Below are positions 45,309 through 49,298 of a DNA stretch of 64,000 nucleotides, piece after piece (position 1 is the first letter of the stretch; the number at the start of each line of letters is the position of its first letter). This DNA is from Promethearchaeota archaeon. GTDB lineage: Archaea > Asgardarchaeota > Lokiarchaeia > Sigyniarchaeales > SOKP01. Position numbers and translations under genes: made by a program. The notes below the pieces were generated by a model. That model was not told where the DNA came from. It ran no database searches and saw nothing but the letters and a program-made list of their open reading frames with translations. The stretch spans positions 1 through 64,000 of the forward strand of contig SHMW01000006.1 of NCBI GenBank assembly GCA_008080735.1, read 5' to 3'.

Positions 45309-47153
45309 GTGCCAATGCCGAATAAAAAGAAGTTCTATGTGCTACTATCCATTTTTATCACAACTTTTATTCTAAGCTCTGTGATTCCAAGATTTTTGAA
45401 TAAATCTTCTCCATTTTCCGTTTATAATGAACCACTACACTTATCTGGCAATTTAGAGGGGGCATCAGATATTACTATCGCCAATATCAATCGAACGATT
45501 AGTATAAACGGATATGGTTTAGTCAATATTGAGGATAATCTTACAATTAGAAATGATTTTGAAAACCCCGTATCATCGATTTTTATGGGGATTCCTACAA
45601 ATATCTTAGAAGATTTAATATACTATAAAGCAAAGGGAAGTGGGGGTAATACATTGTTAGCTGAGGATACTGGGTTATTAATGGACACAGATAAAAATAT
45701 GATAGAGATCTATTTCGATTCTCCTCTACTGCCCGGACAGAGAAAAACGATAATTTTTTCACAATCCTATAAGGATTTACTTAAATATGAACCATCGGGG
45801 TCTCAACAGAAAATCTCTTATAGTGGACTTATTTATCCTTCTATACCGTATAAGGGACAAGGAAGCATAATTGCTGTTATAGAATTACCTATTGGTGCTG
45901 GGAGTATTGAAGATGATTGGGGAACTACACAAGCTAATCATATCACTTTTTCCATAGAAGATTTGCCACAAACATATATAGAACCCTTTTTAGAAAATTT
46001 GGGTGATAATAGAACCATAGATGTTTCAATGGCACATTCTTCAATCACAAACTTAGAAATTCAAGAATCCACAAGACAAATAACAATTTCGCCGTGGGGA
46101 ACCATAAGAGTGGAGGAAGATATACGTATTAAAAATCTTGGTTCTATCTCGGTTCAGAGATTTAATCTTAGGATTCCTGATCCAGCAATTAATGTAGAAA
46201 CAAAAGATAATTTAGGAAATATTGAAGGAACCACGGTAACTGAGTTACCAAACAACCCAAAATCGAAACAGGTTAATTTAGATCTCTCAAATAATCGAGT
46301 AACAATGCAACCAAATTCAAGTTTCCAATTCACATTACGTTACCAGTTAAATTTAGGAATTTATCTAAATTTTGACTGGTTTAGACAATCTGTCCAATTA
46401 GATGTGATAATGACGAATTTTGATTATTTAGTAAAAAATCAGCTAACCCAGATAAGAATTGAAGGCTCTCTAAATATAGATCAAATCTCTGATCTTCCAG
46501 ATATATACGATGAGACTATTAATTCGCAAATTCTCATCTTTGAGTCAGATTATGTGAGTAATCTCGAAGAACGAGAAATTCTGCTCACCTATACAATTGA
46601 TATCTTTGAAATGTTGATGCGACCGATAATTCTTCTTTTAGTAATTGCAGGTGTTTGCTCAGCTCTTATTGTCATAATTAAGAAGAGAAAGGAATTAGGG
46701 ATATTACCTAAGATAGAGAAAGAACAACTACCATTAAGGGAAATTAGAGAATTCTGTTCTCTTTATGAGCAGAAGAACGCACTAACATTAGAAATTCGGC
46801 AAGCAGAAGAAGAATTAAAAAGACGTAAACTTACAAAGAAACAATATCGTAATCTTGTTGATAAAAATGAATCACGAATAAAACAGATTGACGAGGAGAT
46901 CAAGCCATTTAAGAAGGAATTAATGGAAGCAAGTCAAACTTTTGAAAATATCGTACAAAAGCTTGATGTCTTAGAAGCTGAACGTCAAACTGTTGAAGAT
47001 GGGTTGAAATTACTTGATTCGAGATATCGTAAAGGTAAATTGCCTTCTCGATCTGCTTATGTAAAACTAACAAATGATTTTCTCAAAAGGAGAAAAAAGA
47101 TCGATAGAACGATAAGTCGCTTCATTCAGCAATTACGTTCATATTTACTTTAA
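45309..47153 (+). CDS. Ribophorin I (OST1/RPN1)-like protein
   Basis: Signal/TM; two homologous lumenal domains (RTISINGYGLVNIEDNLTIRN and RQITISPWGTIRVEEDIRIKN..KDNLGNI); TM helix; helical cytoplasmic tail. Confidence 0.75.
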   Translation: MPMPNKKKFYVLLSIFITTFILSSVIPRFLNKSSPFSVYNEPLHLSGNLEGASDITIANINRTISINGYGLVNIEDNLTIRNDFENPVSSIFMGIPTNILEDLIYYKAKGSGGNTLLAEDTGLLMDTDKNMIEIYFDSPLLPGQRKTIIFSQSYKDLLKYEPSGSQQKISYSGLIYPSIPYKGQGSIIAVIELPIGAGSIEDDWGTTQANHITFSIEDLPQTYIEPFLENLGDNRTIDVSMAHSSITNLEIQESTRQITISPWGTIRVEEDIRIKNLGSISVQRFNLRIPDPAINVETKDNLGNIEGTTVTELPNNPKSKQVNLDLSNNRVTMQPNSSFQFTLRYQLNLGIYLNFDWFRQSVQLDVIMTNFDYLVKNQLTQIRIEGSLNIDQISDLPDIYDETINSQILIFESDYVSNLEEREILLTYTIDIFEMLMRPIILLLVIAGVCSALIVIIKKRKELGILPKIEKEQLPLREIREFCSLYEQKNALTLEIRQAEEELKRRKLTKKQYRNLVDKNESRIKQIDEEIKPFKKELMEASQTFENIVQKLDVLEAERQTVEDGLKLLDSRYRKGKLPSRSAYVKLTNDFLKRRKKIDRTISRFIQQLRSYLL

Positions 47154-47159
47154 TACTAA

Positions 47160-47804
47160 TTGGTGGTTTTGATAATGAAATTGTGGTTATTTGATATCTT
47201 GGCTTGTCCGATATGTAAGCATTTTCCACTAAAACTTTTTATCTTTTCCTATCAAACAGAAGAAGAGATATTTAGGTCTTATCTTAGTAATTATCAAAAA
47301 AGTGATAGTGTGAGTTTAAAGTCACAAGACACAATACAGATCGACTATGATAATGAACATCAAATTCTCATAAAAGATAATATCGTGATTGAGCCAAAAC
47401 CACTTGTAGACTATATGGATGCTCTACTCTCTAGTATTAAAGAATTAAATCATATTGAAGATCGCAGCCCTTATGAGACAAGTAAAAAATGCTTAAATCT
47501 TGCAAAAGAATCCATATATAATGATTTGAAGAACCTTTCGCAAAATCTTAATCTGGACGGGTTTCAGGAGCGATTGGCTGAGCTTGAATTTCTAAATAAA
47601 TTGAAAGTTGATGCGGAAATCGATTCTGGACTTCTTTTATGTGAATCGTGTAAACGGTGGTATCCAATTATTGAAACAATTCCTCGCATGCTTCCCGATG
47701 AATATCGAGATAAAGAATCCGAGCTCCAATTCTTAGAAAGCAAAAAAAATTTATTAGATGAAAAATTTTTCACATTAGATTTAAAACCATTTGCTCTCAA
47801 ATGA
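47160..47804 (+). CDS. trm112: Trm112-family methyltransferase activator with a long central insert; likely start ATG 47175
   Basis: MKLWLFDILACPICKHFPLKL ... EIDSGLLLCESCKRWYPIIETIPRMLPDE. Confidence 0.85.
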   Translation: MVVLIMKLWLFDILACPICKHFPLKLFIFSYQTEEEIFRSYLSNYQKSDSVSLKSQDTIQIDYDNEHQILIKDNIVIEPKPLVDYMDALLSSIKELNHIEDRSPYETSKKCLNLAKESIYNDLKNLSQNLNLDGFQERLAELEFLNKLKVDAEIDSGLLLCESCKRWYPIIETIPRMLPDEYRDKESELQFLESKKNLLDEKFFTLDLKPFALK

Positions 47805-47857
47805 TTTTTTAAATTGTATTGAATTATAATATCATACAACAGCGTCTATAAAACCAT

Positions 47858-47959
47858 AGCCCGGTGGTGTAGAACGATATATGAAATTATATCGTGCACA
47901 ACGGCCAAGCATCCGGGGCTTTGAACCCTGTGACCACAGTTCGAATCTGTGCCGGGCTA
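47858..47959 (+). tRNA. tRNA-Gln(UUG) with a 29-nt intron in the D-loop (47873-47901)
   Basis: Acceptor AGCCCGG/CCGGGCT (A1-U72); D-stem GTGT/GCAT; anticodon arm CGGGG-CT TTG AA-CCCTG; T-arm CACAG-TTCGAAT-CTGTG; 73 nt after intron removal; CCA not encoded. Confidence 0.93.
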
Positions 47960-48203
47960 TAATTTCATTTTAAAAAGCTTACTAATTATCTTTAGATTAA
48001 ACAGTGATTTTAGCAATTTTAAAGGAAAAAGTTGCAATATGATCGGATTATCTTTTTTTGAAGAAATATACAATCTTTTCCAAATTTTAATTTTTTGAAA
48101 ATATCTTCAACAACTCGCTTAATATAGTTCCCCTACGTACTATTCATGCTAAATTTTAATATGAGAAATAACTATTAAACTCAAAAGCACATATTATTAT
48201 AAA

Positions 48204-49298
48204 ATGAGTCTTTCGGGAAGGAATATCTGGATTGATATTGAGCAACCAAAAGCAGCAATCATGTTTAATTCTCTTATAGAACAATTCCAAGAAGATGGTG
48301 TTAATTTACTAATTACTGCAAGAGATTACGATTCTACTTTTCAAATATTAGACGATCATGATGTTGACTATATCAAGGTGGGGAAACATGGTGGAGCGAG
48401 CTTAGAAGAGAAATTAAAGACTCATATAAAAAGATTAGAAGAGCTTTTTACTTATGTTGCTGAGTTTAATCCAGACTATCTAGTCAACTTTATTTCTGTG
48501 GAAGCTATTAGAATTGCTTATGGACTTCAAATTCCTTCAATCGGGTTTAATGATGAGCCGAGAAATGAGCCCGTGTGTAAATTGATTTTTCCGTTTATAG
48601 ACAAACTAATTACCCCCAAATGTATTCCCAAGGAATCCTATATAGAATTATATGCGGATCCTAAGAAAATTATTCGATACAATGGAATCGATGAAATTGG
48701 ATGGTTATCAAATTTCAAACCTGATCCATCAGTTTTAGAACACTATGATTTACAAATGGGAAACTACGTGATTATGCGAAGTGAACCCTCTGCGGCATGC
48801 TATTTTATAAACAAATTAAAGCCCGATGAGACGATGCTTAGTGAAATCTTTCCCCAAATATATAAAGAATTTCCCAACCATAAATATTTTCTACTGGCAC
48901 GAAACCGAAATCAAGAAGAATTTTTACGGAAAACTCTAAAGAAATATGAAGATAATCCCAATTTAATAATCACTCGTTATTTACCCAATCTAGATGATTA
49001 TTGTTTTTATAGTGGATTGGTTATTAGCGGGGGTGGAACTATTGTAAGGGAATCGAGTCTCTTGAGCGTGCCGAGTATAGAATTTTTCCCCGGTCCAACG
49101 GCACCGCAAGAAATGTTTTTAAAGAACAATGGATTTCCCTTGGAACATATAGAAGAATTAAATAGAATCATAGACAGATCAATCCATGTACTTAATCAAG
49201 GATTCGATAATGACAGAATTAAGCATTTTAAAAAAAAAATTCAACAATTTGAAAATCCCGTGAAGATTTGCTATAATTATGTGCGGATTCATATATAG
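48204..49298 (+). CDS. DUF354 family GT-B-fold protein
   Basis: IWIDIEQPK, ITARDY, VGKHGG, YNGIDE, GGGTIVRESSLL. Confidence 0.85.
   Translation: MSLSGRNIWIDIEQPKAAIMFNSLIEQFQEDGVNLLITARDYDSTFQILDDHDVDYIKVGKHGGASLEEKLKTHIKRLEELFTYVAEFNPDYLVNFISVEAIRIAYGLQIPSIGFNDEPRNEPVCKLIFPFIDKLITPKCIPKESYIELYADPKKIIRYNGIDEIGWLSNFKPDPSVLEHYDLQMGNYVIMRSEPSAACYFINKLKPDETMLSEIFPQIYKEFPNHKYFLLARNRNQEEFLRKTLKKYEDNPNLIITRYLPNLDDYCFYSGLVISGGGTIVRESSLLSVPSIEFFPGPTAPQEMFLKNNGFPLEHIEELNRIIDRSIHVLNQGFDNDRIKHFKKKIQQFENPVKICYNYVRIHI

Follow-up and report, generated by a model that had tools for sequence, protein, structure and literature searches.

The window analyzed here, a stretch of DNA of 64,000 nucleotides, contains at positions 47858-47959 (+) a tRNA-Gln(UUG) gene of a Loki-type Asgard archaeon, which is interrupted by a 29-nt insert. 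The gene is very probably a vertically inherited cellular tRNA-Gln(UUG), transcribed with an intron between G15 and C16 and spliced as a substrate of the relaxed HBh′ type.

The interrupted gene and its splice junction

The sequence was read again, and the coordinates and strings given in the initial annotation proved exact for both the gene and its insert. The 5′ exon (47858..47872, +; tRNA positions 1-15) comprises the acceptor strand, U8 and G9, the D-stem strand G10-U13, A14, and G15, and it is identical to the matching part of the intron-free orthologs. The intron (47873..47901, +) occupies 29 nt at position 15/16 and the intron-free orthologs lack exactly this segment. The 3′ exon (47902..47959, +; tRNA positions 16-73) consists of the rest of the D-arm, the anticodon arm with UUG, the T-arm, the acceptor strand, and A73, with a variable region of 4 nt; position 17 is absent and CCA is not encoded. 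This exon is 89-95% identical to the 3′ exons of the relatives. The stretch 47824..47831 (+), which precedes the start of the mature tRNA by about 30 nt, is possibly a TATA-like box, a reading from the sequence alone that counts for little in DNA of 34% G+C. As for the anticodon loop, the window gene has U33; many tRNA-Gln genes of Promethearchaeia, both UUG and CUG (e.g., L004, L011, and L038), have C33 at the place of the near-universal U33, within the loop CCUUGAA.

Standard tools remain silent on the unspliced gene, as the initial annotation had expected of an intron at this site. ARAGORN found no tRNA in the whole unspliced window and Rfam gave no match there at its gathering threshold. 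At the E-value level, Rfam returned for the unspliced sequence nothing more than a truncated match of 23.7 bits to the tRNA model, covering its positions 10-63, the cut-off being 29. Once exactly 47873-47901 is excised, a canonical cloverleaf is restored and ARAGORN calls tRNA-Gln(ttg) of 73 nt, that is, the standard tRNA which had been proposed to result from the excision. The Gln identity, the UUG anticodon, and the 15/16 site are likewise those proposed at the outset, and ARAGORN on the sequence with the 29 nt deleted and the intron-free orthologs agree on them. For the annotation of the genome, the consequence is that its tRNA-Gln(UUG) is overlooked and the genome seems to be without a copy of its own.

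The position of the junction was determined from 60 relatives that were searched and whose loci were inspected. In more than 15 of them, an intron-free tRNA-Gln reads ...GGUGUAG|YGGCCAAGCAU straight across G15|Y16, and since these genes are continuous over that point, the junction is unambiguous at 15/16. The inserted block cannot slide, because the bases flanking each boundary differ. In many relatives, the BLAST matches begin at query base 45 or 46, which corresponds to C16. Three intron-free orthologs that were scanned scored 52-55 bits on the Rfam tRNA model (RF00005).

Fold of the precursor and conservation of the intron

The minimum-energy fold of the 102-nt precursor (−37.3 kcal/mol) contains the acceptor, anticodon, and T arms together with a central helix (H), a bulge, an intron hairpin (h′), and an open AACG. 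In minimum-energy folds, H is formed by the D-stem strand GUGU (positions 10-13; 47867..47870, +) and the intron GCAC (47896..47899, +), which mimics the 3′ strand of the D-stem (GCAU); its 4 bp are G10-C, U11-A, G12-C, and U13.G. The 5′ bulge A14 G15 ^ A (47871..47873, +) is left as three unpaired nucleotides and is cut after its second base, a placement set by the intron-free orthologs. The hairpin h′ (47874..47895, +) has a perfect stem of 8 bp, with arms at 47874-47881 and 47888-47895, and a loop of 6 nt (47882-47887); its pair probabilities range from 0.86 to 1.0. The 3′ cut site A A ^ C16 (47900..47902, +) has no exon-side helix behind it. The 8-bp hairpin, the pairing of GCAC with the exon, and the AG^A and AA^C flanks, which had all been proposed from the sequence, are thus present both in the sequence and in the minimum-energy fold.

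The 41-nt core folds to the same structure, with a z of −3.6, and none of 200 shuffles folds as well. When the native D-stem is forced across the intron, the energy rises to −35.0 kcal/mol, a cost of 2.3 kcal/mol relative to the conformer with H. On this folding model, the intron would substitute for the 3′ strand of the D-stem in the precursor, as had been suggested. In the thermodynamic ensemble, the probability of the hairpin is near 1.0 and that of the H helix only ~0.34.

The two junction regions, GUGUAGAACG and GUGCACAACG, resemble each other. A target-site duplication at the intron ends was considered and rejected, as these regions are offset by 27 nt and not by 29. In the intron-free relatives, there is no AA preceding C16. 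The likeness of the two regions is explained by the near-palindromic H strand and is not an insertion footprint.

Regarding the class of the motif, an exon-side helix h closing a second 3-nt bulge was looked for, and G9/U8 cannot pair with G18 G19 C. For this reason the intron was classified as relaxed HBh′ (BHL-like) and not as strict hBHBh′, which is the substrate of alpha4 and alpha′2 enzymes. The features of HBh′, that is, an H of 4 bp, a 5′ bulge of 3 nt cut after the second base, and an h′ of at least 2 bp stacked on H, are all found here. The relaxed motif of the initial annotation therefore stands, with a full central helix, one true 3-nt bulge, a strong intron helix, and the exon-side helix absent.

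A pattern for the split D-arm was searched in 161 genomes of the class, with the reversed pattern as control. The pattern matched 52 places in 48 of the 161 genomes and the reversed control none. Forty-nine of the matches, in 47/161 genomes, are tRNA-Gln genes (38 UUG and 11 CUG); two matches are tRNA-Glu genes with a different arrangement and were left out. In the 49 genes, the introns are 29-33 nt long, mostly 30, and AA^Y is the commonest form of the 3′ cut site. When the 49 were aligned, 90.6% of the cells were paired, against 24-61% with the partners slid. All 8 pairs of h′ show compensatory changes (73 cells) and 95% of its cells are paired among 46 distinct sequences; in the covariation control, no shuffle reaches the observed level.

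In H, the inner three pairs are conserved in 93-100% of the relatives and the outer G10 pair in only 15/46 (33%); the window copy, with G-C, is among the best formed. Since the G10 pair is mismatched in most relatives, the substrate is at the relaxed end of the range tested in vitro. The initial annotation considered 15/16 a rare intron position; this does not hold for the lineage, in which 49 tRNA-Gln genes (47/161 genomes) and also tRNA-Phe(GAA) genes use it.

The positions of introns in tRNA-Gln vary even within one genus, where 15/16, about 20/21, 37/38, about 45/46, and the T-loop are encountered. The tRNA-Gln(UUG) genes of genus g11 (e.g., L037, L041, and L045) contain two or three introns apiece, located at 15/16 and in the variable region (about 45/46) or the T-loop.

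Other tRNA genes, splicing enzymes, and the proposed route

The assembly (4.1 Mb, 140 contigs, 34% G+C) is 93% complete with 7% contamination, so an intron-free copy of the gene possibly lies outside of it. The only other standard Gln gene that it contains is tRNA-Gln(CUG) at C2:49175-49276, which carries an intron of the same kind, 29 nt long and at 15/16, with a G-G mismatch as the fourth pair of H. ARAGORN mis-calls this gene as tRNA-His(atg) with a 13-nt intron. In tRNA-Phe(GAA) (C77:3995-4097, −; L084:201-303), an unrelated 29-nt intron of the same architecture is also located at 15/16; the gene was missed by ARAGORN and only its 3′ part was given by Rfam. An intron at 15/16 also occurs in the Phe genes of no fewer than eight related genomes, and where the Phe gene lacks an intron its sequence is GGCGUAG|CCCGGGAACGC.

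Of the credible tRNA matches that Rfam gave for the genome, about two thirds are over-long or truncated, that is, interrupted. A genome-wide census of introns, in which BHB-like candidates in 48 tRNA-like regions were each tested by ARAGORN, yielded too much noise for positions to be assigned reliably, since many false deletions pass ARAGORN. The introns reported here are therefore only those checked by eye and against orthologs.

A third tRNA-Gln(UUG), at C5:32264-32338 (L083:1501-1575), is intron-free and low in G+C, has G73, and scores 72.6 bits on Rfam. It adjoins genes for ribonucleotide reductase and an isochorismatase-like protein. As the true cellular tRNA-Gln(UUG) it was rejected, since no full-length homolog was found in 60 relatives; it looks like an accessory gene, perhaps derived from a mobile element or a virus.

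The subunit type of the splicing endonuclease had been named as a check at the outset and, judging from the protein sequences, the enzyme is of the two-subunit, broad-specificity (alpha-beta)2 type. Two EndA paralogs are present in the genome. The alpha protein (200 aa, contig C72) has both Pfam EndA domains, retains the Tyr/His/Lys triad of the active site, and aligns end to end with the catalytic subunit of Aeropyrum pernix (PDB 3P1Z_B, E = 1.8e-37). It reads SKPR at the place of K44-P45-R46 of A. pernix, which form the Crenarchaea-specific loop. In the second paralog (205 aa, contig C37), the same domains are found, with Phe replacing Tyr and with His lost, and this protein is the structural beta subunit. 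K44 of the specificity loop is required to cut D-loop and relaxed (BHL) introns (PMC3241643), and (alpha-beta)2 EndA with this loop has been reported in Asgard archaea (PMC5829648). The relatives of EndA alpha are titled Promethearchaeota or Promethearchaeia MAGs, which indicates that the host is a Loki-type Asgard archaeon. The RtcB ligase has two full-length paralogs (C10:27830-29137 and C1:51843-53150; 570 and 556 bits), and the genome consequently encodes both a broad-specificity EndA and an RNA ligase.

The proposed route is as follows. Before splicing, the transcript would form its acceptor, anticodon, and T arms as usual, and the 5′ strand of the D-stem (10-13) would pair with the GCAC at the 3′ end of the intron instead of with 22-25. 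H would stack on the 8-bp h′, so that A14-G15-A bulges out as three unpaired nucleotides and AA-C16 lies where H opens. The (alpha-beta)2 endonuclease would then cut each site after the second base and RtcB would ligate G15 to C16. Finally, the D-stem would refold with 22-25 into the standard 73-nt tRNA, to which CCA would be added later. The mechanism is well supported, and we infer that cleavage and ligation take place in vivo.

Three other readings of the insert were weighed against splicing at 15/16. The gene might be a pseudogene, that is, a tRNA-Gln inactivated by a small hairpin element, with the Gln codons read by other tRNAs. The lack of any call by the standard finders and the presence of the third tRNA-Gln(UUG) on contig C5 would agree with such a loss of function. 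It is nevertheless improbable, given that the geometry of the insert is conserved with covariation in 49 genes and that Gln(CUG), the only other standard Gln gene, has an intron of the same kind. The tRNA on C5 has G73, is low in G+C, and lacks a full-length homolog among 60 relatives, which makes it a doubtful replacement. Furthermore, the T-stem pair 52:62 is A-U in the window gene and G-C in the relatives, a double compensatory change which argues against a pseudogene and for a gene under selection.

The insert could also persist in the mature tRNA, which would then have a giant D-loop bearing an additional hairpin, and some insertions in the D-arm of Asgard tRNAs are indeed without a recognizable motif (bioRxiv 10.64898/2026.10.13.758758). 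On the contrary, the motif is present in the window gene, with a full H, a 3-nt bulge, and h′, and the ends of the insert match the intron-free ortholog sequence to the base. Retention would also move G18 G19 out of the elbow, and the splicing enzymes are encoded in the genome, so that this reading is hardly credible. An equally slight chance is given to a real intron with another junction, for instance 5 nt upstream, with an intronic GUGC serving as the D-stem strand. The partial Rfam alignment does place this GUGC as the D-stem strand, and ARAGORN also accepts the 29-nt deletion when it is moved by 5 nt. However, no relative has the mature sequence that such a cut would produce, all intron-free orthologs being G15|Y16, and the cut would also cost the tRNA its G15 and the G15:C48 pair. 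The conformer in which GUGC pairs with 22-25 reaches −32.4 kcal/mol compared with −37.3, with a probability of ≤0.001. The 5-nt-shifted junction was thus rejected on the basis of the intron-free orthologs and the folding energy.

History of the intron and its place among known systems

A Trm112-like gene (47160..47804, +; Pfam PF03966) was used as the synteny anchor of the locus. The homologous ORF immediately precedes tRNA-Gln(UUG) in at least 20 relatives of the family, from ten genera, and this constant position shows that the tRNA-Gln(UUG) locus is orthologous among them. The genes flanking the tRNA within 45309-49298 of the window are ribophorin I-like (PF04597), Trm112-like (PF03966), and DUF354, and the region is a neighborhood of Asgard eukaryote-signature genes. 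The Trm112-like protein has 214 aa, with a long insert between the halves of its zinc ribbon.

The genus tree was built from this flanking gene, a single protein of 210 aa, and is resolved only near the tips. In this tree, the genome of the window (G000) and G006 are sisters (100/97 support). The syntenic UUG gene of G006 is without the 15/16 intron and has an intron at 37/38, whose sequence is partially similar, as judged by eye, to that of G003; this 37/38 intron is apparently common to both. The UUG gene of G002 and the CUG genes of G001 and G003 are also without the 15/16 intron, and the tRNA-Gln of G004 has a D-loop intron at another site. The same intron type is found in tRNA-Gln(CUG) of both G000 and G006. 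The window UUG intron is identical in 24/29 and 23/29 positions to the CUG introns of G000 and G006, respectively, and in at most 21/29 to the others of the 49. The UUG introns of genus g11 are dissimilar from its CUG introns. The exons around the intron are identical in the UUG and CUG paralogs of G000, and no conversion tract is traceable.

Because the sister UUG gene is without the intron and the nearest intron is that of the CUG paralog, a copying from CUG to UUG is slightly favored, as a recent event of gene conversion or intron transposition, with the older 37/38 intron lost in the same lineage. The most economical order would be the entry of the intron into CUG before the split of G000 and G006, followed by its transfer to UUG in the line of G000 and the loss of the 37/38 intron.

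Alternatively, the 15/16 intron of UUG may be ancestral to the family, lost many times, and not recently copied from CUG, a possibility that falls somewhat short of an even chance. UUG genes of four genera in two families have the 15/16 intron at the syntenic locus, a CGAUAU-type stem is common to some of these introns, and in the tree, whose deep part is unresolved, the starred branches force only two changes. On the other hand, an ancestral intron requires precise losses in G006, G003, G004, and G002 and a homogenization with the CUG intron in G000, and the UUG and CUG introns of g11 are unlike each other.

As a broader reading, the window intron would be a fresh isoacceptor copy that postdates the split from the sister genome, with the older 37/38 intron lost meanwhile, and 15/16 would be, in general, a self-made landing site in this family; the chances for and against this combined proposal seem evenly balanced. 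Every tRNA would already provide half of H and the bulge with the 5′ strand of its D-stem and A14 R15, and a hairpin of ~30 nt ending in a copy of the D-stem 3′ strand would be spliceable at 15/16.

The kind of intron described here is already known, since D-arm introns are common in Asgard archaea, and the window gene is a further example. Asgard tRNA genes are heavily interrupted (PMC11291895), and D-arm introns missed by annotators are typical of them (bioRxiv 10.64898/2026.10.13.758758). The window intron resembles the known D-loop introns at 20/21 and 20b/21 in being of the endonuclease type, with a 4-bp central helix, one 3-nt bulge, and an intron helix, and in being cut after the second base of the bulge. 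Another common feature is an (alpha-beta)2 EndA with a Lys-bearing specificity loop, which in the present case is predicted from the genes. Unlike those introns, it is positioned at 15/16, directly after the conserved G15, its H is built from the 5′ strand of the D-stem, its host is a mesophile-like, AT-rich Asgard archaeon, and it belongs to a narrow size class of ~30 nt. Position 15/16 is not named among the non-canonical intron positions in the reviews that were compared, where the list of Yoshihisa 2014 ends in "etc."

With the published Asgard tRNA introns, the window intron has in common the D-arm site, the failure of standard finders, the (alpha-beta)2 EndA background, and the character of recent, often terminal-branch gains. 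The published studies focus on Atabeyarchaeia and Freyarchaeia/Jordiarchaeia, whereas the genome of the window is a Promethearchaeia (Loki-type) MAG, and the intron is distinguished from those published by a full HBh′ motif and an exact junction. Copying between tRNA genes is rare in Asgard archaea (1.5%; bioRxiv 10.64898/2026.10.13.758758); in contrast, the nearest relative of the window intron is the intron of an isoacceptor gene. In Thermoproteales, a transposition of introns between tRNA genes was described by Fujishima 2010 (as cited in PMC4090602). The two cases are alike in that different tRNA genes of a single genome share near-identical introns at one position, and differ in that here the genes are two isoacceptors for the same amino acid whose flanking exons are identical. 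This identity of the exons makes plain gene conversion enough to explain the copying.

The window gene provides a clean example, supported by covariation, of a D-loop intron in Promethearchaeia, where Gln and Phe genes repeatedly use the site immediately following G15 and intron positions turn over between sister genomes. G15 is the site of archaeosine in archaeal tRNAs, which raises, for the tRNAs described here, the experimental question of whether G15 is modified before or after splicing. Copying between isoacceptors is also suggested as a concrete way in which introns spread and, if true, would offer a dated case on which the arrival of Asgard tRNA introns can be tested.
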